Origin: Chiloscyllium plagiosum
Lineage: Eukaryota
NCBI RefSeq assembly: GCF_004010195.1
Contig: NC_057718.1
Location: 4,595,021 to 4,659,020, forward strand
DNA length: 64,000 nucleotides
Direction of reading: 5' to 3'
The notes under the pieces are model-generated. The model had not been told where the DNA came from. It did not search any database and worked only from the letters and a program-made list of their open reading frames with translations. Shown piece by piece: positions 1,205 to 59,930 of the stretch (position 1 is its first letter; each line of letters opens with the position of its first letter). Made by a program: the position numbers and the translations under genes.

Positions 1205-1470
1205 AGCACAATGGCTCAGTGGCTAGCCTTGCTGCCTCACAGTACCAGGGACCTAGGCTTGAGCCCAGCCACTAAAGTTTGTACATTCTCCCAATGTCTG
1301 CATAGATTTCCTCTGTGCGCTCCCGTTTCCTCCCACAGTCCAACAATGTGCAAGTTAGGTGGATTGGCCATGCTAATTTGTCTCAATGTCCAGGGAAATG
1401 TACCTGCTTTGGGGCTAGATCAGGGGTTTGGCTGAATAGCCTCTTCCTGCACTGTACAGATTCTATGATG
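1205..1470 (+). mobile_element. HE1-type tRNA-derived SINE
   Basis: TGGCTCAGTGG A-box head, core TTTCCTCCCACAGTCCAA..ATGTGCAAGTTAGGTGGATTGGCCATGCTAA, CR1-like tail. Confidence 0.85.
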
Positions 1471-3040: not shown

Positions 3041-3190
3041 CTTGTGGCGCGTCATCCTTCGGTTCCCCAAATCCCATTGGTCGGGGTTGACGTCAGTCGG
3101 AATGGGATGAACCAATAGCAGGGCAGGTCCCCCTTCCCCATGTCGATTCATCTCTCCTGATGGTTGTCTCTCTGTGCCCCAAGGATTGGT
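3041..3190. promoter_or_regulatory. CpG-island promoter with palindromic CRE and CCAAT boxes
   Basis: TGACGTCA 3088-3095, half-CRE GCGTCA ~3048-3054, ATTGG 3076-3080, CCAAT 3112-3116, ATTGG 3185-3189. Confidence 0.65.
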
Positions 3191-5089
3191 TTCTCCATCC
3201 CGCTGTCTCTGTGTTCTTTAGCTGCTTTGGTCCTTCCACCATCAGGTAAATGATCTGCATCTTCCCTGGGGTTTGCGGAGGAGGAAGGCTGGGTGCTGCT
3301 TTTGTGGGGGGGAATTGTAGAGTTTTACAGAGGAAGACTGTTGGGAGGACTCGAACCTGCCTCTAACTGGTTCTAGCCTGTTCACTCTGGTTGCTGTGTG
3401 TCAGCAAAACCCAGGGAACCCAGATCCGAAAATCCACCGACTTTAATCCCCACACCCAGTAGCAAACAATCTCTGAGCGAGGCATTTGCTTCTTTTAAAA
3501 AGAAATCGGAAAGAGCTTGCCTTTTCTCTTGTATTATTTTAAAAAAAAAACAACAACACCCTTTTCTGACCACAGAATGACCCAAAGAGCTCTGCAGCCT
3601 CTTTGAACTGGAATGCAGAAAAAAAAAACACAAGCGGGATTCGTACAGACGCAATAAGCGTTTTATTATCTTTGCTGTTGTTTTGTGATGTTGCTAGCGG
3701 AAAGAGTGTTGTGTTTGGTTTTCCGTGATGCTGCTTCGAAATGGTCGGGAGGGAAAGATGGTGCCGTGTTTAAAGCCGTCTAATGTGAACGGTGCCACCT
3801 CCAACTCCGCCGCATTCGCTCAGTGTTTCCACCAGAGCTGAAAAGTGTCGTGATGTTTCAGGGCTTTAGTTAATTACATGGACGGGGTGCGGGGTGGGAG
3901 TGGGAGTGGGAGTGGGAGAAGTCTGGGTTACTGTGGAAAGCAGAATAAATGCCAAAGGATTAATAGTACAAATTAAAATAGGATAGGAATGTATAAACTG
4001 AGATCAGTGGGATTGGTGGATGCAGTAGCTGGCACTTATTTCGTAAATATAACCCAAAGTGTTTCACAGGAGTGTCATGAAATCTAACACGATAGGGAAG
4101 ATGAGTAAAAATTATCAAAGAGGGAGGTTTTAAGGAAAGCCTTAAATGAGGTGATAGAGAGAATGTTAATATTTCTGTTCTGCGACTGCTGCAATTTTAC
4201 AGAGAAGCACAACACACGCTCAAGAAACCAACACCTTAAATTTTCTGCTTAGGCACTTCACGGGTACAATGTTGAACTCAGTGGCATTTGAAACTGACTA
4301 CCTTATGCCTGTTCCCCATTTTCTTAGCTTCTCTTCCTGATCCCCACCCACCCACTTTATCTTGTTTGTCTTGTTTACTCTTCGTAGAGAGGATCCACTC
4401 TAACCCATCACACATTAATTTACACCCATTTTACATCTCTCTTTCTTTGTCATCACCATTGACGATCCCTTTATCTTTCTCACTGGGTGTGCCTCAAGTT
4501 TTCTTTACAAATGCCAACACTTTTCCATGCAGGAGAAATCATTCCTGGTTTGAAACATTAACTCTGTTTCTCTTTCCACAGATGCTGCCAGACCTGCTGG
4601 GTTTGTCCAGCATTCTCTGTTGGTAGAGTGACTGAGCAGGTCAGGAAAGGTAGAGCTTAGGCAATTTAACGTAATGCATGCTCTACATTGGAGAGACAAA
4701 ATAGGTGAATGCATTATAGACCACCTCTGTGTGATCCTGACCTCCTGGTCTCCTGTCAGTTTAATTCACTACCTCGTTCCACTCTCATCTTCATGACCTG
4801 CACTTTTTCCAATGTGATCAACACAAGCTTGAGGAAGAATAATTCATCTATCTCAGATTTTTTTAGACAAACATTGAGTTCAACAATTTCAAAACATAAC
4901 CCTCTTTTTTTTTCTTGCATAAAAACTGCAGATGATAATTCTGTGATTTGTATTTCCTTTTATGACTAACACCAATGGTTAAAATTGGAGGAGGCTGTTC
5001 TGCTGCTCAAACCTATCCCACCATTCAATGCAATTAGTGCTAATCTTCTACCTCAAATACATCTTTTTGAACAATCCCCATATTCCTTT

Positions 5090-7154: not shown

Positions 7155-8182
7155 AGAACAAAGAACATTGCAGCTCAGTACAGGCCCTTCGGCCCTTGAT
7201 GTTGCGCCAACATGTGAAACCAGTCTGAAGCCCATCTAACATCCACTATTCCATTCACGTCCATATGCCTATCCAGTGACCATTTAAATGCCCTTAAATG
7301 GCAAGTCTACAACTGTTGCAGGCAGTGTGTTCCACACCCCTTTACTCTCTAAGTAAAGAAACTACCTCTGACATCTGTCCTATATCTTTCACTCCTCAAT
7401 TTAAAGCTAGTGTTAGGTAAGGGGTGAATGTGGGGGTATGGGTGGGTTGCGCTTCGGCGGGACTTGTTGGGCCGAAGGGCCTGTTTCCACACTGTAATGT
7501 AATCTAATCTAATCTAATCTATGTCCTCTCGTGCTAGCCATCACCATCGAAGGAAAAAGACTCTCACCGTCCAACCTATCTAACCCTCTGATTATCTAAT
7601 ATGTCTCAATTAAGTCACCTCTGAACCTTCTCTCTGATGAAAACAGTCTCAAGTCAGTCCCTCAGCCTTTCCTTGCAAGACCTTCTCTCCCTACCAAGCA
7701 ACACCCTCGTAAATCTCCTCTGAACCCTTTCCAAAGCTTCCACATCTTTTCTATAATGCGGTGATCAGAATGTATGCAGTACTCCAAATGTGACAATGTG
7801 ACCACACCAGAGTTTTGTATAGCTGCAACATGATCTGATCTAAACCGCGAAATCAAACTCATGCCTCTGTATTTCCTGCAATATCCTACTGTGAGGAACC
7901 TTTATCTAATGCCTTACTGAAATCCATATACACCACATCAACTGCTTTACTCTCATCCACCTGTTTGGTCACCTTCTCAAAGAACTCAATAAGGTTTGTA
8001 AAGCATGACCTACCCTTCACAAATCCGTGTTGACCATCCCTAATCAAGTTATTCCTTTCCAGATGATTATAATTCCTATCTCTTATAACCTTTTCTAACA
8101 CTTTACCCACAACCAAAGTAAGGCTCACAGGTTTATAATTTCCAGGGTTGTCTCTACTCCCCTTCTTGAACAAAGGAACAAC
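7155..8182 (-). mobile_element. CR1 LINE 3' part (internally deleted) with HE1 3' fragment inserted at ~7410-7520
   Basis: VVPLFKKGSRDNPGNYKPVSLT...QHGFVKGRSCFTNLIEFFE; the insert ends in (TCTAA)n. Confidence 0.88.
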
Positions 8183-8199
8183 TGCACGGGAGGTGCACA

Positions 8200-8433
8200 A
8201 AGCAAGATCAACATTATTTGAAGTTTTAAAGGTCCATTCAGCAGTCTAATACTGGCATGGAAGAAGCTGTTCTTGAACTTGTTGGTGCATGTATTCAAGC
8301 TACTGTATCTCCTGCCTGATGGAAGAGATTAGAAGAGAACATTACCAGGGTGGGAGAGGTCTTTGATGATGTTGGCAGTCTTTCCATGGCCGTGTAAATG
8401 GAGTTCATGGATAGGAAGCTGGCTTCTGTGATA
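8200..8433 (-). mobile_element. Rex1/Babar-type LINE 3' end (continues at 12696-13117 and 13996-14160)
   Basis: Minus strand reads NSFFHASIRLLNGP, like the Rex/Babar SFFP.AIRLLN C-terminus; rejoins 12696 via GATAG. Confidence 0.65.
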
Positions 8434-11400
8434 GAACACGAACATTACAGTGCAGTACAGGCCCTTCAGCCCTCAGTGTTGTACTGATCTGTGAAACTAA
8501 TCTGAAGCCATGTCCCCTCATGTTTGCCATAACCATCTGAGCGAAAAGGCTCTCACTGTCTCAGTGGTTAGCACTGCTGCCTCACAGCACTAGGGTCCCA
8601 GGATCAATTCCAGCCTCGGGCAACTGTCTGTGTGGAGTTTGTACATTCTCCCTGTGTTGGTGTGGGTTTCCTCCGGGTGCTCCAGTTTCCTCCCACAATC
8701 CAAAGATGTGCAGGTCAGGTGAATTGGCCATGCTAAATTGTCCCATAGTGTTAGGTGCATTAGAGAGGGGGGGTGGGTTACTCTTCAGAGGGACGGTGTG
8801 GACTTGTTGGGCTGAAGGGCCTGTTTCCACACTGTAGGGAATCTTATCTAATCATCTTGCATGTCTCTATTAAGTCACATCTCAACTTTCTCCTCTCTAA
8901 CAAAAACAGCCTCAAGTTCCTCAGCCTTTCCTCATTAGATCTTCCCTCCATAGCAGGCAACATCCTCGTAAATCTCCTCTGCACCCTTTCCAATTCCTCC
9001 ACATCCTTCCTATAATGCAGCGACCAGAACTGTATGCAGTACTCTAAAGTGCGGCTGCACCAGAGTTTTGTACAGCTGCAAGATGACCTCATGGCTCCGA
9101 AACATGATCCCTTTGCCAATAAAAGCTAACACCGTATGCCTTCTTGCAACCTTATCAACCTGGCTGGCAACTTTCAGGGATCTATGTTCATGAACACTGA
9201 GATCTCTCTGCTCATCCACATGACCAAAAATCTTACCATTAGCCCAGTATTTTATATTCCTGTTTCTCCTTCCAAAGTGAATCACCTTGCACTTTTCCAC
9301 AATAAACTCCATTTGGCACCTCTCAGTCCAGCTCTGTAGCTTATCCATGTCCCTCTGCACCCTGTAACATCTTTCCACACTGTCCACAACTCTACCAACC
9401 TTTAGTGTCATCCTGAAATTTACAAATCCATCCTCTCTGTCCTCATCCAAATCATTTATAAAAATGACAAACAGCAGTGGATCCAAAACAGATCCTTGCG
9501 GTGCCCCACTAGTAACTGAACTCCAGGTTGAACATTTTCCCATCAACCACCACCCTCTGTCTTCTTTAGCTAGCCAATTTCTGATCCAAACAGCTAAATC
9601 ACCCTCTGTATTTTCTGCAATAGCCTACCACAGGGAACTTATCAAACGCCTTACCGAAATCCATATACACCACATCAACCGCTTTACCCTCATCTACATG
9701 TTTGTTGCCAAATCAAAGAAGTCATTCAGGTTTGTGAGGCACAACCTACCCTTCACAAAACCGTGTTGACTATCCCTAATCAAGTTATTCCTTTCCAGAT
9801 GATTATAAATCCTATCTCTTATAACCCTTTCCGACACTTTACCCACAACTGAAGTAAGGCTGACAGGTCTATAATTTCCAGGGTCATCTCTACTTCCCTC
9901 CTTGAACAAGGGGAGAACATTTGCTATCCTCCAGTCTACAGCAAGAATGCCAGAAGACAAGGATGACATAAAGATCAAAGCCAAAGGTTCTTCAATCTCC
10001 TCTCTAGCTTCACAGAGGATTCTAGGATAAATTCCATCCAGCCCAGGGGACTTGTCTATTTTCACACTTTCCATAATTGCTGACACCTCCTCCTTATGAA
10101 CCTCAATCCCATCTAGTCTAATAGCCTGTATCTCAGTATTCTCCTTGACAATGTTGTCTTTTTCCTGTGTAAATTCTGATGAAAAATATTCATTTAGTGC
10201 TTCCCCTATCTCCTTGGACTCCACGAAGAACTTTCCACTACTGTCCTTGACTGGCCCTAATCTTACTCTCCTCATTCCTTTATTCCTGACATAGCTATAG
10301 AAAGTTTTAGAGTTTTCCTTGATCCTACCTGTCAAAGACTTCTCATGACCCCTCCTGGCTCTTTTTAGCTCTCTCTTTAGGTCTTTCCAGGCTAACTTGT
10401 AACTCTCAAGCCCCTAAGTGAGCCTACACGTCTCTGCTTTATATAAGCCTCCTTCTTCCTCTTGACAAAAGATTCAACTTCTTTAGTAAACCACGGCTCC
10501 CTCACTCAACCACTTCTTCCCTGCCTGATGAAGGACATGCAGTAGCTGTTCCTTGAACAAGCTCCACATTTTAATTGTGCCCATCCCCTGCAGTTGCCTT
10601 CCCCAGCCTATGCATCTTAAATCTTGCCTAATCACATCATAATTGCCTTTCCCTCCAGCTATAACTTGCCTTGTGGTATATATTTATCCCTTTCCATCGC
10701 TAAAGTAAACATAACCAAATTGTGGACACTATCACCAAAGTGCTCATCTATCTCCAAGCCTAACACCAGGTTCATTACCCAGTACCAAATCCAATGTGGC
10801 TTCACCTGTTTTTGGCCTAACTTCATACTGTGTCTGGAAACTCTTCTATGCACATTGGACAAACATTGACATATCTATAGTACTCAAATTATAGCATTTC
10901 TAGTCAACATTTGGAAAGTTAAAGTCCCACATAACAACTACCCTCTTACTTTCACTCCTATCCAGAATCATTTTGGCAATCCTTTCCTCTACATCTCTGG
11001 AACTTTTCAGAGGCCTATAGAAAACTTCCAACTGGGCGACCTCTCCTTTCCTGTTTCTAACCTCAGCCCATGCTATCTCAGTGGATGAGCTCTCATCAAA
11101 TGTCCTTGCCGTTGCCCTAATACCGTCCTTGATTAACAATGCCACACCTTCCCCTCTTTTACCACCTTCTCTGTTCTTACTGAAACATCTAAATCCTGGA
11201 ACCTGCAACAACTATTCCTGACCCTGCTCTACCCATGTCTCTGAAATGGCCACTACATTGAAGTCCCAGGTACCAACCCATGCTGCAGGTTCACCCACCT
11301 TATTTCGGATGCTCCTGGCGTTGAAGTAGACACACTTCAAACCACCTTCCTGCCTGCTCTTGCACTCTTGCGACCTTGAAACCTTATTTCTGACCTCACT

Positions 11401-12695
11401 ACTCTCAACCTCCTGTATGCTAGAGCTACAATTCAGTTTCCCATCCCCCTGCTGAATTAGTTTAAACCCTCCGAAGCGCATTAGCAAATGTCCCCTCCAG
11501 GATATTGGTACCCCTCTGGTTCAGGTGAAGACCATCCTGTTTGTAGAGGTCCCACCTACCCCAGAGAGAGCCCCAATTATCCAGAAATCCAAAACTCTCC
11601 CTCCTGCACCATCCCTGTAGACACATGTTCAACTCCTCTCTCCATTATTCCTTGCCTTGCTAGCACGTGGCACAAGTAACAAACCAAAGATGATAACTCT
11701 TTATTCTAGCTCTAAGCTTCTACCCTAGCTCCTTGAATTTCTGCCTTACATCCCTGTCCCTTTTTTCCTATCAATGTTATTTGTGCCTATGTGGACCACG
11801 ACTTGGAGCTGCTTCCCCCCACCAAGGATCCCAAAAACACGATACAAGAGATCATGAACCCTGGCACCTGGGAGGCAACATACCAACTGAGAGTCTCTCT
11901 CATTCCCACAGAGTCTCCTATGTGTTCCCCCTAACTATGGAGTCCCCAGTGACTAATGTTCCTCTCCCCACTTCCCTTCTGAGCAACATGGACAGACCCT
12001 GTAACTCCATGGCTTACCCCTCGTAAGTGCAATCTCTCCCCCACCCTCCCCACCCACACTCCTCCTCACCCCCACCCCCCCAACAGTATCCAAAATGGTA
12101 TACCTGTTATTGTGGTGAATGGCCACAGGGGATCCCTGCACCGTCTGCTGGTTTCCTTTCCATCCCCTGATGGTAACCCATCTGCCCTTTTCCCTCTACC
12201 TGAGGTGTGACTACCTCCCTGTAACTCCTCTCAATTACCCTGTCAACCTCCCATATGATCCGAAGTTCAACCAGCTCCAATTCCCTATTGTGATTTCGGA
12301 GGAGCTGGAATTGGATGCACTTTCCGCAGATGAAGTCAGTGGGGACACTAGTGGTGACCTTTACTTCCCACATTCTACGGGAGGAGCATGCAACTGCCCT
12401 ACTGTCCATTCCACTGTTCTGAATTCCCAAACAGATTTTATTTTTAAAATAGCCTAGTAAGCTTACCAATCGGGCACATAGAACCTTTTTTTTTTGGTTC
12501 GAGGAGGAGGATGGGTGGGAGACACTACCAAAGTAGTGTTTTGGGTAAAACAACCTCCCACAATATTACCTCACTGACTCAGCCGTCCATATCTGCTCCT
12601 GCTCAGTGTGCGCTCCACCTATTCATGAAGTATGTTTTTAAAGGATTAATTTACCTTCCCAGTAGCCCCCTAGTCCTCCCTCTTGCTGCTCCCAA
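8434..12695 (-). mobile_element. Near full-length degenerate CR1 LINE (ORF1 Zn-finger/zipper + esterase; ORF2 APE endonuclease + RT)
   Basis: ORF1 CSS..MWEV...FICGKCIQFQLL; EN CVYFNARSIRNK and WDFNFPNVD; RT PGNYRPVSLTS, QHGFVKGRLCLTNL, GAPQGSVLDPLLFVIFINDL; many frameshifts. Confidence 0.93.
8560..8845 (+). mobile_element. HE1-type SINE nested in the CR1
   Basis: CTCAGTGGTTAGCACTGCTGCCTCACAGC head, B-box-like GGATCAATTCC, core and CR1-like tail. Confidence 0.92.
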
Positions 12696-17454: not shown

Positions 17455-17567
17455 CGGGGAGAATGTGCAAACTCCACACAGTCAGTCGCCTGAGTCGGGA
17501 ATTGAACCCGGGTCTCAGGCGCTGTGAGGCAGCAGTGCTAACCACTGTGCCACTGTGCCGCCCACGG
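17455..17567 (-). mobile_element. HE1-type SINE 5' fragment
   Basis: Reverse complement GGGCGGCACAGTGGCACAGTGGTTAGCACTGCTGCCTCACAGCGCC...GGGTTCAATTCCC. Confidence 0.88.
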
Positions 17568-24698: not shown

Positions 24699-24756
24699 AT
24701 GAATTATCTCGTCCATACACTCATTCTACTGGCTGCTGCTGAACTGACCCGAGCAG
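24699..24756 (+). CDS. Signal-peptide exon of B7/butyrophilin-family receptor (MNYLVHTLILLAAAELTRA-G)
   Basis: Acceptor cttcctttag|G ATG, hydrophobic core, small residues near the cleavage site, donor CAG|GTAAGG, phase 1 matching the IgV exon. Confidence 0.82.
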
Positions 24757-42554: not shown

Positions 42555-42895
42555 CATAGAATCCCTACAGTTTGGAAACAGGTCCTTCGGCCCAACAAGC
42601 CCATACCGACCTTCCAAAGAGTAACCCACCCAGACTCATTCTCCTACTACTCGACATTTCCCCTGACTAATGCACCTAACCTATGCATTCCTGAACACTA
42701 TGGCAATTTAGCATGGCCAGTCCACCTAACCTGCACATCTTTGGGTTGTGTGAGGAAACCAGAGCACCCAGAGGAAACCCACACAGACACTGGGAGAATG
42801 TATAAACTCCACACAGATAGTCGCCCGAGGTAGGAATCGAACCTGGGTCCCTGGCGCTGTGTGGCAACAGTGCTAACCACTGAGCCACTGCCAAC
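42555..42895 (-). mobile_element. Full-length HE1-type SINE
   Basis: Reverse GGCAGTGGCTCAGTGGTTAGCACTGTTGCCACACAGCGCCAGGGACCCAGGTTCGATTCC...TAGGGATTCTATGA. Confidence 0.92.
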
Positions 42896-44422
42896 CCAAA
42901 TGTTAACCTCTGGTGCTGCAGGAATTCAACCCACCCTGTTGGGCTTCACTCTGCATCATAAAGCATCCATAGCAAACTGACATTCGGCAAAACGTGTACT
43001 GGAGTGACACAGCTACCTGGATCATTGCTGATTGAATCACTCAGAACATGACAGCTCACCCTCTTCTGATAATCTGAACCACTCGAAGTGAGAGATAGCC
43101 AAAGTTCCTTGTACTGACTGTGAAGTACAGTTGATTTTCAGTTTTTAAGTATGGAGTCAAAAAATGTGGTGTTGGAAAAGCACAGCTGGTCAGGCAGCAT
43201 CCGAGGAGCAGGAGAGTCGACATTTTGAGTGTAAGCTCTTCAGCGGGGTATTAAGTGTGGAGATTTTGGGGTGAGGTCAGGTGTAAAGGTTAAGGGCTGA
43301 TGGTCAGTGTTGGGGGAAGTGAAGATGGTTACTGATGGTCTGCCACTCTGCGCAAGAGGAGGCTCCAAGGTTATTTATGCAAGTTTTTATTTACTCTTCG
43401 GACGTGGGACTGGCTGGGCCCAGCGTTTATTGCCCGTCCCTAGTTGTCCCCTTGAGAAGGTGGGGATGAGCTGCCTTCTTGAACAGCTGCAGTCCATGTG
43501 CTGTACATAGACCCACAATGCCCTTAGGGAGGGAATTCTAGGATTTTGACCCAGTGACACTGAAGGAGTGGCAATATATTTCCAAGGTAAGTGTCTTGAA
43601 GGGGAACATGTATCTGTTGCCTATGTCCTTCTCGGTTGAGGTGGTTGTGCTGTGTGAGGATCTTTGGTGAATTTCTGCAGCCCATCTTGTAGATGGTACA
43701 CACTGCTGTGACTGAGTGTTGGTATTGGAGAGTGTCAGTGTTTGTGAATGTGATGCTAACTAAAATTCTTCCCTCACCTTCAGAGCCTCAGTGAATCAAT
43801 TTTCCTACATTTCGATACAAAGTAAAGTCGCTTGAACCCAATGTTGAGAACGAAACACATCCATTGGTGTGTGTTTTTCTTTGAGATGCTAATTAGCTTT
43901 CTTTACTTGGGGCTCACACTGGCCAGATTGGATCCTTTCACCTGCAGTGACGTTTCAGCTGTAAATCCAGGTTTGTGTACCAGGGGCTTGAAAGGGCACT
44001 GTGCAATCCACTGTCATCCTGCTCTCTGAAAGAGGCTTTTCTCAATTGGGTAGGAAGCAGAGGTATGTCAATGGAGTTCGTTTTGAATATTTTTACATCA
44101 GAGAAGGGTAGATCTTTGGTTAGGCTATTGCGGGAGGGTAAGTGGGAATGTGGATTTGTGATTGCCATCAGGTTAACCGTGATTTCATTGAATGGTGGAG
44201 CGAGGTCGAGAGGCCGAATGGCCTCCTCAGACTCCTTGTTTGTATGAATCGAGGTGCAAATCCGCTATGATTGGAGAGAATGGTGGGCCAGTCCCAAGGG
44301 GCCGAATGGCCTCTTGTTGAGGTTCCTGAGCACATTGTAAGGTATTTGGTGTTGGTGTTCACGGTTGGTATATTGTCTACAGTGATGAACTAATCATCCC
44401 TCTTTAATATCTCACTCTCCAG

Positions 44423-44770
44423 GTCATGTTAAAGTGAGATGTAAAGAGGAGCAAATCACAGCCAAGGCTGGTGAAGATGACATCATCCAGTGCCGATTTT
44501 ATTCCAGAAACAAGGCTGGCAGTGTGGCTTTCGTTTGGAAGAAGGAGGATGCTGCAGGGATTATCTACAATTACACGATGAGCCACAGCAGCCTGGAGGA
44601 ACAGGAACCCAGCTACCGAGACAGAGTCGAGGTCTTTGACAATGAAATTCCGAAAGGGAATGTGTCCCTTAGATTGAAGAACGTGACTCTCTCTGACTCT
44701 GGTATCTACAAACTCTCCGTTGCCACCCGATCCCAAACCACTGAGACACAGGTCTTGCTCAGTATAAGAG
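44423..44770 (+). CDS. IgV exon of B7/butyrophilin-family receptor (VTCN1/B7-H4-like by eye)
   Basis: Acceptor ctctccag|, donor AG|GTAAGA, 348 nt, phase 1-1; GEDDIIQCRF, VW, EQEPSYRDRVEVF, GNVSLRLKNVTLSDSGIY are B7/BTN V-set motifs. Confidence 0.92.
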
Positions 44771-46140
44771 GTAAGAATAGGCAACTTTCGTCTTGTTGAC
44801 TAAAACAAAAATGGATTCATTGCTTCTTTCAGAAACTCTTGTACAGGTGTCAGTCTGATCATGATTGGAGAAAAGCAGTATTTAAACTTGGATACTAAAA
44901 GCATTTATTATACAGATATATATATTTTTTAAAAATCAAAATTAAATCCTGTCCTGGGCTTTGTTTGTGTTCCTTCCCTCAATCTGCGCCCAGCATCTTT
45001 CCACAGCAGCTCAAGCGAGTCCAGGAAATCATCGTGTGTGGGATTGGGATCATGGCTTGAGACATTTGCTATTACTTGTGGTCGTATGTCAGAGCTCTAA
45101 CACAATGTGCCACATTGCTGCCTCCTTATTCATCAGTGCTTTTTAAAAGCAGAAGGGATCTGGAGAGGAGTACTTTCAACTGGAAGTACTGCTGCTCCCA
45201 TCTGGACAAGGTAATTTAAAACGTGTATGATGCCTCTGCCTTGGAATGCATTGTCTGTCATCTCGTTGGGCTGATAAAAGTAACGTATATACCGTAATCG
45301 TCTCATTCGTTGTTATAAGGTGCACTTTAATCTGCTGAATGTTAATGGGTGATGACCCCTCTCTGACTAGAGTCTTTAATAATAATAATTATCATCCTCT
45401 TTCTTGCAATGGAGGAGTTTCTGGCAAGGTGGACTTCTGTTTTCCATCCCCGTAGTTGTCCTACGACTGGGCGATAAATACCATCTGAAGTGAGTCCGTT
45501 GAGGATCAGTCATGTTGAAGTCTCTCAGACACCCAGATTTAATTCCTGGAAGGCTAATCAAAGAATGGGAATTTTGATTTGGGGTGAGTTAGGATTTGGG
45601 CAGTCCAGTTTTCCACCTGCTCAGATAGATAACACAACCATGGGCAAGTTTCCCCAACAAATGGGCTGAGTTGTGTGGTGACTGCATAGTTCACAAGAAA
45701 TCCCACAGGCGTCTGCCCCTGTTTGAGGGAGAGAGAAAGAGAGAGTGAGTTGGTTACATACCACTGCACATTAAGCTGTGGACAAAGCAAGGAGGTGTTG
45801 TGGACTCTAATTTCCACATTAAAAGCCATGCTGCATCGAGCTCTGGCCGTGTAGCCAAATGAACTGAAGTGTGGAGATGGTTTATATTATGGAGGAGCAG
45901 AAGTAGGCATCTTGGGTCTTCATGAGGGATTTGGGGTGAGCAGCTCAGGTTGGGGTCGGATCTGTGCTGTGCAGCTTACGTATCCTGCCTTTCTCATTCT
46001 AGTAATGGTATTAGTTCCTTCTCTCCAATGGAGTAAAGTTTCAAGTCTTTGCCAGTTACTGAAAATATAAAACAGTAGCTCCACTGAATCTGCCTCTTTT
46101 ATGGCCTGGGATACTGATCAGAGGCACCAAGCCAGAGTAC

Positions 46141-48029: not shown

Positions 48030-48365
48030 CTGGCATGATGGCTCAGTGGTTAGCACTACTGCCTCACAGCACCATGGATCCAGGTTCGATTCCAGCCTTT
48101 GGTGACTGTCTGTGTGGAGTTTTCACATTGTCTCTGTGTCTGTTTGGGTTTCTTCTGGGTGCTCCTGTTTCCTCCCACAGTCCAAAGATGTGTAAGTTAG
48201 ATGGATCGGCCACTTTAAATTGCCCGTAGTGTTCAGGGATGTATAGGTTAGGTGGATTATTGGGATATGCAGGGTTAGAGTGATACAGTAGGGGAGTGTT
48301 TCTGGGTGGGTTGGGGTGGACTTGATGATCCAAATGACCAGCTTCCACGCTGTAGGGATTCTGTG
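48030..48365 (+). mobile_element. HE1-type SINE
   Basis: TGGCTCAGTGGTTAGCACTACTGCCTCACAGC...GGTTCGATTCC...CTGTAGGGATTCTGTGA. Confidence 0.9.
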
Positions 48366-50084: not shown

Positions 50085-50366
50085 CTCTTGGCACGCAGCC
50101 TGTCATTCATTCACCTTCCGATGAGCTGGGCCTGTTGGTGCTGGTCTGCGAGTCCTCAGGGTGGTACCCGGCTCCTCGCGTGACCTGGGAAAATGGACTA
50201 GGCGAGAATCTAACCAGCTACTCGCACACACAGCTAACTAACTGCAAGGGTGGCAGTGTCTGTGTGAAGAGCACGCTAGAAATGGATAACTGGCCCACCG
50301 GCAACTACACGTGCACGATGTGGGACCAGGAATTGGATGAGGGAGTGTCGTCTACTTTCACTCTGA
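50085..50366 (+). CDS. IgC exon of B7/butyrophilin-family receptor
   Basis: Acceptor ttttgctttgcag|, donor A|GTGAGT, 282 nt, phase 1-1; (A)LGTQPVI..LVCESSGWYPAPRVTW..G.NL..NYTC matches BTN/B7 C domains. Confidence 0.92.
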
Positions 50367-51769: not shown

Positions 51770-52060
51770 TCCGGTGGCACAATGGTTAGCACTGCTGTCT
51801 CACAGCACCAAGGATCTTGATTTGATTCCAGCCTCAGGTGACTGTGCAAACTCTACCAGACATTCTCCCCGTTTCCTCGCACAGTTCAAAGATGTGCAGA
51901 CTAGACAAATTGCCCAAAGTATCCAGGGATTTGCAGACTAAATAGGTTATCCTTGGGAAATGCTGGGTTACAGGGATGAAGAGGGTCTGGATGGGATGGT
52001 CTTTAGTGAGTTGATATTTCTCAATGGGCCAAATGACCTGCTCTGCACAGTAGGAATTCT
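51770..52060 (+). mobile_element. Degenerate HE1-type SINE
   Basis: GTGGCACAATGGTTAGCACTGCTGTCTCACAGC head; AAAGATGTGCAG core. Confidence 0.75.
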
Positions 52061-52531: not shown

Positions 52532-52626
52532 TTCACAGGGTACCACTGGGTACAGTCATCGGTGCGACTGGTGCAAGCGTTTGTGCTTTCATTCTGATTG
52601 TCGCTGTCTGTTGGAGCTGGTGGTAA
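52532..52626 (+). CDS. Transmembrane exon (coding part) of B7/butyrophilin-family receptor; exon extends to donor at 52655
   Basis: Acceptor ttttacag|, phase 1 gives (I)HRVPLGTVIGATGASVCAFILIVAVCWSWW* (TAA 52624-52626); donor TG|GTGAGT at 52656; spliced ORF 783 nt = 260 aa. Confidence 0.8.
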
Positions 52627-53479: not shown

Positions 53480-55000
53480 AAACATAGAACAGTACATGCA
53501 GGGACAAGCCCATCATGCCGACTATGATGTTCTAGTCTAATCCGATCTGCCTGCCCATGGTCTATATCCCTCTATTCCCTGTCTGCTCATGTCTCTGTCT
53601 GTTCAACGCTGCTATCTGCTTCTACCATCTCCCCTGGCAGCTTCTGTGTTTACCACACATTTTGTTTACACTCCCCCTCCCCCCACCCTAAACTTCCTAG
53701 TATTTGACACGATTCCCACACGATCCAACCGCTTCATAATTTTATTTACTTCAATCAGGTCACCCATTCAGCCTCTGACTCTCCGAGTTTGTCCATCCTC
53801 TCCTGTATAGCTAATACTCTCCAAGGCAGACAATATCCTGGTAAACCTCTTCGCACCCTCATCAAAACCTCTACATCCTTCCTATAGTGTAACGACCCGA
53901 ACTGCACGCAATACTCCAAGCATGGCCTGACCAAAGCCTTATACAGTTGCAACATGACATGCCAACTTTTATACTCAGTGCCCCAGTGATGAAGACAAGC
54001 ATGCAATATGCCTTCTTCACCACCTTATCCCCTTGTGTTGCCACTTTCAGGCAGGTAAGAATCTGCACCCAAAGATCCCTCTGCATATCAATGCTCCAAA
54101 GGGTCTGGATATTTACTGTTTGCTTTCCTCTTGCATTTGACCTTAGCAAATGCATCACCTCACACTTGTCTGGATTAAATTCCATCTGCCATTTCTCCAC
54201 CCAACTTCCCAGTTGATCTATATTCTGCTGTATCTTTCAATATCCTTCCTCTCTATCCACACCTCCATCTATTTCCTGCTAGTGGAAACATCTTCTCCAT
54301 GTCTACTGCATCCAGGCCGCTCAGTGTTCTGTAAGTTTCAGTCAAATCCTCCCTCATATTTCTAAATTCCATTGAGCATAGACCCAGAGTCCTTACCCAC
54401 TTGCCATATCCTTGGGATTGTTGTTGGAGGCAGTCCAGAGGATATTTACAAGGCCAGAGGTATCATCCTTAGACATGGGCCCAAAACTGCTCACACTATG
54501 CCTGATGCAATCTGACCAGAGCCTCATACAGCCTCAGCTGTCCATCTCTGCTCTTGTATTCTAGCCTTCTTTAAATAAATGCTAACATTGCATTTGCTTT
54601 TCTAACTGCCACCTGAACCTCGATGTTAACCTTAAAAGAATCCTGAACTAGGACTCCTAAGTGCCTCTGTACTTAAGATTTCCACAGACTTTCCCTGTTT
54701 AGAAAGTAGTCTATGCTTATATTCTTTCTACCAAAGTGCATAACGTCACACTTTCCCACACTGTATTCCATCTGCTACTTTTTTACCCACCCTCCGAGCT
54801 TGTCCAAGTCCTTTTGCATCCTGCCCACTTCTTAAACACTATCTGCTCCTCCACCTATCTCTGTATCCTCTACAAACTTAGCAACAATGCCCTCGGTTCC
54901 TGCATCCAAAACATTAACATATAGCGTGAATAGTTGTTATCCCAACACTGATTCTTGCGGAACTGCCCTCGTCGTCGGTTGCCACTTTACCCCACTCTCT
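53480..55000 (-). mobile_element. Two CR1 LINE 3' fragments
   Basis: MLQLYKALVRPCLEYCVQF; KWQMEFNPDKCEVMH. Confidence 0.85.
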
Positions 55001-59634: not shown

Positions 59635-59930
59635 AGTATGGTGGCTCAATGGTTAGCACTGCTGCCTCACAATACCAGGGACCTGGTTCAATTCCACTAT
59701 CAGTCTGTGTAGACTTTGCACATTTTCCCTGTATCTGCATGGGTTTCCTCTGGATGCTCTGGTTTCCCCCCCACAATGATGTCCATAGTGTCCAGGAATA
59801 CGTAAATTAGGTGGGTTAGCCATGGGAAATACATGGTTACAGGGATAGCACAGCAGTATATGTATGGGTGGGAGGGTCAATGTGGACATGATGGGCCAAA
59901 TGGCCTGCTTCCACACTGTAGAGATTCTAG
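59635..59930 (+). mobile_element. HE1-type SINE
   Basis: GTGGCTCAATGGTTAGCACTGCTGCCTCAC...CACACTGTAGAGATTCTA. Confidence 0.85.

Follow-up and report, generated by a model that had tools for sequence, protein, structure and literature searches.

A V-type immunoglobulin domain of the shark Chiloscyllium plagiosum, encoded in the window (the whole 64,000-nucleotide stretch of DNA analysed here), has lost the strand F cysteine of its canonical core disulfide, retains the strand B cysteine (Cys23) and carries an additional cysteine (Cys6) at the end of strand A. We put at about 60% the probability that an intra-sheet, cross-strand A–B disulfide between Cys6 and Cys23 has taken the place of the B–F bond, a pairing deduced from the conservation and predicted position of the two residues. 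The product is small, expressed and located at the cell surface; it belongs to the B7 family and consists of a leader, an IgV domain, an IgC domain and a hydrophobic C-terminus, and its family and layout suggest that it serves as a surface ligand similar to B7-H4.

No covalent feature of the Ig fold is more conserved than the B–F disulfide, and here an entire B7 clade has been without it since before the split between sharks and rays, an age that follows from the presence of both sharks and batoids in each of its three paralogue groups. The clade represents a natural experiment on relocating the core bond of an Ig domain, offers a candidate A–B intra-sheet disulfide for the V-set, and indicates that the B7 family has a branch specific to elasmobranchs. 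Ig annotation that relies on motifs (C…W…YxC) would overlook or misjudge such genes. A full-text search, reaching mostly literature other than subscription papers (to which, for example, older work on B7 evolution belongs), found no published description of the A–B cysteine arrangement or of this elasmobranch clade. The words 'cysteine' and 'disulfide' do not occur in the accessible part of PMC12841164, and the disulfide described in the excerpt of PMC11926128, located in the CDR3 loop of a sponge Ig domain, is not relevant. Ig domains that lack a disulfide and Ig domains bonded within one sheet are already known; what is new is the occurrence of an A–B pair in a B7 V-set domain, conserved in three paralogue groups, each with members from both sharks and rays.

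The V exon and its gene

The domain is encoded by the IgV exon (44423-44770, plus strand) of a leader–V–C–TM gene, which is in phase 1 at both ends, with the acceptor ctccag/GT at 44423 and the donor GAG/gtaag after 44770. The plus-strand frame 44425-44769 contains no stop and translates into 115 amino acids, HVKVRCKEEQITAKAGEDDIIQCRFYS...LSDSGIYKLSVATRSQTTETQVLLSIR (P0001). Four of its codons are central to the argument, the counts referring to the distinct V domains of the family described below:

44440-44442, plus strand: TGT, Cys6, the extra cysteine at the end of strand A (reading frame; 26/26 distinct family V domains)
44491-44493, plus strand: TGC, Cys23, the canonical B-strand cysteine, kept (reading frame; 26/26 family domains)
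44536-44538, plus strand: TGG, Trp38, the core tryptophan of strand C (reading frame; 26/26 family domains)
44713-44715, plus strand: CTC, Leu97 at the site of the canonical F-strand cysteine, in DSGIYKL (frame and structure alignment), within the segment …LSDSGIYKLSVA…

An earlier note on this DNA had remarked on the replacement of the F-strand cysteine, the further cysteine near the N-terminus (44440) and the retention of the B-strand cysteine (44491) and the C-strand tryptophan, and had added that CTC lies at least two substitutions from a cysteine codon, making a single base error unlikely. All of this holds beyond the single exon: Cys6, Cys23 and Trp38 are invariant, the F site is leucine or valine in every one of the 26 domains, and the CTC codon, two substitutions apart from both TGC and TGT, is shared by the linked paralogues. 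The assignment to the B7/BTN type of V domain proved equally sound. The exon matches the Pfam V-set family (PF07686) over residues 8-108 with 46.1 bits against a cut-off of 26 (E 6.5e-12), and the C-strand tryptophan and the D-x-G-x-Y tyrosine corner are in place (W38, D91, G93 and Y95, invariant in the family); the B/F cysteine pair of the V-set is incomplete, with Cys23 present and Leu97 at the F site. Among solved structures, phmmer ranked the IgV domain of human B7-H4/VTCN1 first (4GOS, E 6.9e-16), followed by CD276, MOG, BTNs and PD-L1. These alignments pair Leu97 with the F-strand cysteine of B7-H4 (…DAGTYKCYI…), and Cys6 with an A-strand valine of CD276. The best structural match, taken up below, is likewise the B7-H4 IgV domain.

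The remainder of the gene was delineated by a tblastn search with P0002, the closest of the named homologues (98% identity in the V domain), which identified five coding pieces on the plus strand:

3160..3246, plus strand: possible alternative 5' coding exon, 29 codons (tblastn with P0002 residues 1-29, 100% identity)
24699..24756, plus strand: leader (signal peptide) exon, MNYLVHTLILLAAAELTRA(G), phase 1 donor G/gtaagg (tblastn, translation)
44423..44770, plus strand: IgV exon (frame, Pfam; joint 44770/50085 in 4/4 runs)
50085..50366, plus strand: IgC exon, Pfam C2-set_3 (BTN3A2-like Ig-C), E 2.9e-15 (Pfam, tblastn, joints in 4/4 runs)
52532..52626, plus strand: last coding exon, with the stalk and the hydrophobic C-terminus …GATGASVCAFILIVAVCWSWW, stop at 52624-26 (tblastn; joint 50366/52532)

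This is the layout of a B7 gene, an N-terminal IgV domain followed by IgC and a membrane anchor, with one domain per exon in phase 1. The canonical IgC cysteines are encoded at 50147-49 and 50312-14. The stop lies directly after …CWSWW, leaving no cytoplasmic tail and no B30.2 domain, and homologues of 260-289 amino acids terminate at the same site. Human B7-H4 has the same arrangement of leader, V, C and hydrophobic C-terminus without a cytoplasmic tail.

The GT..AG joints 44770/50085 and 50366/52532 (side 126) are both found in contigs of 4/4 public runs, so a spliced form of exactly this gene model exists. The runs come from four studies under three organism codes and are of the kind 'RNA?' by guess, none being RNA on record; their contigs include intron contigs, which makes depth uninformative on the level of expression. 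One contig (X9, record 22) has 0 differing letters over 44420-44770, and another (X20, record 8) has 3 in the V exon, the two listed being 44517 T>A and 44568 C>T, both synonymous at third positions. Among the differences listed between run contigs and the window, none changes the codons of Cys6, Cys23 or Leu97.

Two features outside the V exon deserve mention. The piece at 3160-3246, about 21 kb upstream of the leader exon, corresponds to the N-terminal extension of the 'X1' isoform of P0002 and, judging from this match, may serve as an alternative first exon, which would add residues ahead of the signal peptide. The IgC exon encodes an additional pair of cysteines (50243-50245 and 50261-50263, …TNCKGGSVCVKS…), which is kept within the paralogue group of the window's gene and absent from the other two groups, and which probably gives the IgC domain a second, local disulfide.

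A branch of the B7 family in sharks and rays

Relatives were collected by word-based searches and by a HMMER profile search, of which the best 150 of 6073 hits (E ≤ 0.001) were considered; the sequences searched by profile were one representative per 50% cluster, and names were taken from cluster look-ups. Named members of the family come from 15 species of sharks and batoids, plus this genome: the sharks Chiloscyllium punctatum, C. plagiosum, Rhincodon, Cetorhinus, Carcharodon, Heterodontus, Heptranchias, Pristiophorus, Scyliorhinus canicula, S. torazame and Mustelus, and the batoids Hemitrygon, Rhinoraja, Narcine and Mobula. No member from outside the elasmobranchs occurs among those best 150 of 6073 hits to 50%-cluster representatives. 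The names that members bear in the databases are automatic and inconsistent (CD276 homolog, VTCN1-like, BTNL2/8, BTN1A1-like, MOG-like).

The family falls into three paralogue groups: g1, which contains the window's gene, and g2 are both V–C–TM, and g3 is V–C–C–TM with a short tail. V exons of the latter two groups lie on the same contig of this assembly:

G000:C9:4566068-4566409, minus strand: V exon of g2 (L002)
G000:C9:4519567-4519869, minus strand: V exon of g3 (L003)

L002 lies about 29 kb before the start of the window, on the opposite strand and some 73 kb from the window's V exon, to which it is 66% identical; L003 lies a further 46 kb away and is 40% identical. Both have the C-x16-C spacing, and the codons at the A, B and F positions are TGT/TGC/CTC in the window and in L002 and TGT/TGT/CTC in L003. 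The g3 proteins (L003; P0022, P0166, P0173, P0176), with their second C domain and short tail, are more divergent and carry the same A and B cysteines, with leucine or valine at the F site.

The family profile alignment comprises 27 rows, which represent 26 distinct V domains, and 13 of its 115 columns are invariant among the 26 (C6, D18, C23, W38, R67, G78, N79, L82, L84, N86, D91, G93 and Y95). The F position is leucine in 23 domains and valine in the other 3; with cysteine there in 0/26, the loss reported for the single window sequence extends to the other sharks and rays examined. Other cysteines are sporadic in the 27 rows (column 24 in two, columns 25 and 71 in one each), and no further ectodomain cysteine is conserved across g1, g2 and g3.

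A maximum-likelihood tree was computed from 48 V domains, leaving aside near-duplicates, isoforms and fragments (P0002, P0008, P0034, P0178, P0163, P0164, L001), the CD276-like exon L014, which the motif filter had missed, and all multi-V proteins. The three groups form one clade (UFboot/SH-aLRT 97/87), each with both sharks and batoids; support is 99/99 for g3, 90/90 for g1 and only 67/54 for g2. Their sister, weakly (85/79), is a group of shark VTCN1-like proteins, and the BTN-like exons fall outside.

B7-H4/VTCN1 provides the best match to the window's domain in sequence and in structure, shares the motif GN(A/V)SLRLKNV…D.G.Y and ends in the same tailless way, but it has the canonical B–F pair, and this genome holds a separate VTCN1-like gene. 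The V exon of the latter (L011, at C12:44.80 Mb, G000:C12:44796336-44796614), whose relatives bear the names VTCN1 or VTCN1-like, keeps its F-strand cysteine and lies about 0.3 Mb from exons of the Glyco_hydro_47 family (C12:45.11-45.20 Mb), to which MAN1A2 belongs, the gene that adjoins VTCN1 in human; no Glyco_hydro_47 match was found on the window's contig, C9. This synteny, together with the grouping in the tree, rules out the window's gene as the VTCN1 orthologue. CD276/B7-H3 and the BTN/BTNL proteins are the next-best sequence matches, the IgC domain matches C2-set_3 'BTN3A2-like Ig-C', and the automatic names use these labels, but all of these proteins have the B–F pair. A separate CD276-like V exon (L014, …DEGSFTC…) with its F-strand cysteine kept is found on C40, which excludes the window's gene as the CD276 orthologue, and a butyrophilin is excluded by the absence of B30.2 (PRY/SPRY), the frame stopping after the hydrophobic segment. 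Since VTCN1-like and CD276-like genes are thus found elsewhere, the window's gene is orthologous to neither, and it belongs to a separate B7 lineage, known only from elasmobranchs among the searches made.

An A-strand cysteine is present in the VTCN1-like proteins of Chiloscyllium and Stegostoma only (2/6), one residue closer to the B-strand cysteine, and the site is serine or threonine in the other 4/6 (Carcharodon, Heterodontus, Mustelus and Scyliorhinus). Inheritance of the A-strand cysteine from a VTCN1-like ancestor is ruled out by this distribution, and the A-strand cysteine of the VTCN1-like genes is a separate gain. The Chiloscyllium and Stegostoma proteins (L011, P0179, P0182) have a cysteine triad in which the A-strand cysteine accompanies the canonical B–F pair; proteins of this type (241-244 amino acids) end in …DDG..S.DL, with no evident hydrophobic anchor.

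Position and probable pairing of Cys6 and Cys23

With an alignment of 77 rows, AlphaFold2 produced a model of the V domain with a pLDDT of 91.8 and a pTM of 0.85 (an alignment of 13 rows gave a pLDDT of 42.3 and was unusable). In this model DSSP assigns strands A (2-6), A' (10-13), B (19-21 and 23-27), C (35-40), C' (46-51), C'' (54-56), E (82-84), F (93-100) and G (105-114), a predicted set that includes the A', C' and C'' strands of the V type. The closest structure found by Foldseek is the B7-H4 IgV domain (4GOS; TM 0.89, rmsd 1.7 Å, 30% identity), followed by that of PD-L1. As the alignment behind the model is dominated by canonical B–F domains, the model says nothing on the Cys6–Cys23 bond, and the neighbourhood of the two residues is derived from spacing, DSSP segments and analogy.

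Cys6 lies inside model strand A, in a block with a pLDDT of 93, about 7 residues from the predicted mature N-terminus. Residues 2, 4 and 6 of the family are hydrophobic or cysteine, and residues 3, 5 and 7 are polar or mixed (Lys, Ser, Ala, Val, Leu), an alternation that directs Cys6 towards the core. The spacing between Cys6 and Cys23 is 17 residues; in kappa VL domains, Gln6 lies 17 residues before Cys23 (Kabat numbering). According to the excerpted IgStrand paper, the anchor of strand A, often E or Q, is the backbone neighbour of the B-strand cysteine (PMC12051499). By analogy, Cys6 would occupy this anchor position, opposite Cys23 on the adjacent antiparallel strand, with both residues facing the core.

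The case for a Cys6–Cys23 bond is that both cysteines are invariant, that no other ectodomain cysteine is shared within the family, and that the secretory pathway is oxidising; two invariant cysteines that have no other conserved partner argue for pairing with each other. The earlier note had left two outcomes side by side, a rewired intradomain disulfide and free thiols available for covalent dimers. The same conservation, and the inward orientation of Cys6, favour the rewired bond as the probable one and make free thiols or dimers less likely. In the proposed mechanism, the inter-sheet B–F disulfide would have been lost at the base of the clade, the F-strand cysteine giving way to leucine or valine, and a cysteine would have become fixed at the A-strand position that neighbours the B-strand cysteine. 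The Cys6–Cys23 bond would staple edge strand A to strand B, Leu97 would fill the core at the site of the old bond, and the two sheets would be held only by packing. The domain would still fold as a normal V-set sandwich, presumably still presenting its receptor-binding face.

Departures from the B–F bond are known from several other Ig domains: the intra-sheet disulfide of Siglecs joins strands B and E, that of CD4 domain 2 joins strands C and F, and V domains of the CD2/CD58/SLAM type lack both canonical cysteines. Siglec V-set domains resemble the arrangement proposed here in that a single core disulfide lies within one sheet and not between the sheets (PMC9875244, in excerpt). They differ in the partner strand, which would here be strand A; the E strand of the window's protein has Val80 and no cysteine, a B–E pair is absent from a family whose cysteine columns are 6 and 23 with sporadic 24, 25 and 71, and kinship is limited to the fold. 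Disulfides between adjacent strands of one antiparallel sheet exist, with a mean Cα–Cα distance of 4.3 Å, and are typical of allosteric bonds, for which CD4 is a cited example (PMC1949407, in excerpt). The proposed bond would share this geometry with CD4 domain 2 (-RHStaple), but the latter is another type of Ig domain and is bonded between other strands. Non-canonical core disulfides that use the B-strand cysteine are also described for titin Ig domains, where cysteine triads allow isomerisation (PMC5766482, in excerpt). The triads of these I-band domains match the A+B+F triads found in fish V domains, but titin domains are intracellular and of the I-set, and their third cysteine is on strand G, not A.

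How unusual each of the two changes is was gauged from the V domains retrieved by the profile search, 503 rows in 162 proteins, of which 486 rows from 143 proteins are not family members. Of these 486, 453 have cysteine in the F column, 11 have a gap there and the remaining 22 have another residue (S 8, F 8, L 4, Y 1, I 1). The A column is aligned in only 123 of them, with Gly 48, Cys 30, Val 29, Ala 9 and others 7. By these counts, loss of the F-strand cysteine is rare, and a cysteine at the A-strand site is not. Domains outside the family that combine an A-strand cysteine with loss of the F-strand cysteine are, within the best 150 hits, only the Sparus aurata protein P0030 and the degenerate repeat P0047; P0030 is a tandem-repeat protein with serine at the F site and an extra E-strand cysteine.

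A counterpoint to the proposed bond is that the A-strand cysteine occurs together with an intact B–F pair in 21/109 non-family domains (those with both columns aligned and cysteine in the F column), among them a BTN-like exon of this genome (L008), the Pristis protein P0151 and several teleost BTN-like proteins. With the B–F bond intact in these domains, their A-strand cysteine cannot bond the B-strand cysteine and must be in another state, either free or, in the 5 of the 21 that also have a G-strand cysteine, bonded to that residue. An unbonded or otherwise bonded state, as in these A+B+F domains, could apply to Cys6 here too.

Such tolerance of an unpaired cysteine at the A site in the 21 domains bears on the most serious alternative, namely that the V domain has no disulfide and retains both Cys6 and Cys23 as buried, unbonded thiols for reasons of packing, in the manner of CD2 and CD58. 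The plain hydrophobic residue at the F site (Leu or Val), which fills the core, would suit this reading, as would the ability of Ig domains to fold without any disulfide, CD2 being the exception named in the excerpt of PMC12051499. CD2-type domains do share with the window's the loss of the B–F bond from a cell-surface V domain, but the family described here keeps its B-strand cysteine strictly and adds a second one. Both cysteines are retained in 26/26 domains down to 37-40% identity while the F site drifts between leucine and valine, which exceeds the usual constraint of packing, and in the oxidising secretory pathway a bond would be expected between thiols that sit on neighbouring strands and point in the same direction. 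We regard a disulfide-less domain as unlikely.

An elaboration of the Cys6–Cys23 bond would make of it a strained cross-strand disulfide that serves as a redox switch: reduction at the cell surface would free strand A and let the V domain reshape, or swap strands into dimers, tuning receptor engagement. This seems to us quite improbable, redox lability of the window's protein being pure conjecture. If it were true, the A+B+F triads of related fish B7/BTN V domains would be a stepping stone from which the bond moved by disulfide isomerisation; as a conjecture, the triads offer a plausible path for moving it.

Very improbable is an intermolecular disulfide through Cys6, linking the protein covalently to a second copy of itself or to the adjacent paralogue's product (a homodimer or a heterodimer) and leaving Cys23 free in the core. 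Cys6 is about the seventh residue of the mature chain, many BTN-like V domains of fish have an A-strand cysteine without a partner inside the domain, and the two paralogues, about 73 kb apart from V exon to V exon on opposite strands, have a converted segment in common. Against this, the alternation of hydrophobic and polar residues turns Cys6 inward, the model places it within strand A in the block of pLDDT 93, and the invariant Cys23 would be left without a role.

Selection, probable gene conversion and elements in the introns

The window's V exon was compared with L002 by the Nei-Gojobori method with Jukes-Cantor correction:

whole V exon: dN 0.238, dS 0.821, dN/dS 0.29
codons 1-45: dN 0.50, dS 2.55, dN/dS about 0.2
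codons 46-107: dN 0.057, dS 0.42, dN/dS 0.135

Both genes are under purifying selection. The earlier note had taken the intact frame to speak against simple decay, and the spliced transcripts, the conservation over three paralogue lineages and a dN/dS of 0.29 between the paralogues (0.135 over codons 46-107), well away from 1, take that argument further; at 44713 the listed contig differences introduce no cysteine codon and the relatives have leucine or valine. A sequencing or assembly error or a decaying pseudogene, which has next to no probability, is refuted by the same codon in contigs of independent runs, leucine in 23 and valine in the other 3 of the 26 family domains, open frames with canonical splice sites and spliced transcripts, a dN/dS far under 1 and the two changes that separate CTC from a cysteine codon, and the oddity is conserved in the family.

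The synonymous distance drops six-fold in the middle of the V exon (from 2.55 to 0.42). Over 44560-44745 the similarity to L002 is mosaic, with species-specific residues common to both paralogues of one species, and a run contig maps a piece of the paralogue to 44560-44747 only. The drop in dS, the shared species-specific residues and the mapped paralogue piece together suggest that gene conversion between the window's gene and L002 has affected the C'–F half of the exon.

The intron that follows the V exon contains a stretch of about 190 bases (45025-45213) that, at protein level, is 75% identical to the tail at the C-terminus of P0008, an isoform from a stingray (Hemitrygon 'MOG-like X4'). 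In this genome its frame is interrupted by a stop, and its ordinary read depth excludes a high-copy repeat. The stretch is either an intronic element that has been conserved or an alternative last exon from which rays make a V-only product. A short interspersed repeat is present in seven copies across the window (1220-1240, 8565-8585, 17524-17544 on the minus strand, 42859-42879 on the minus strand, 48047-48067, 51783-51803 and 59650-59670), with the translation …AQWLALLPHS(T/A)RD.G…. At the two copies that lie in the stretch covered by the runs, contig depth reaches 10^4-10^5 in each of the four, and the repeat is a very abundant, transcribed SINE-like element. Long open frames on the minus strand, at about 7889-11520 and at 53758-54236, contain reverse-transcriptase-like and endonuclease-like motifs (for example …YMDFSKALD…, which we take to be reverse-transcriptase-like) and look like remnants of LINE-type retroelements, located in the first intron and downstream of the gene.
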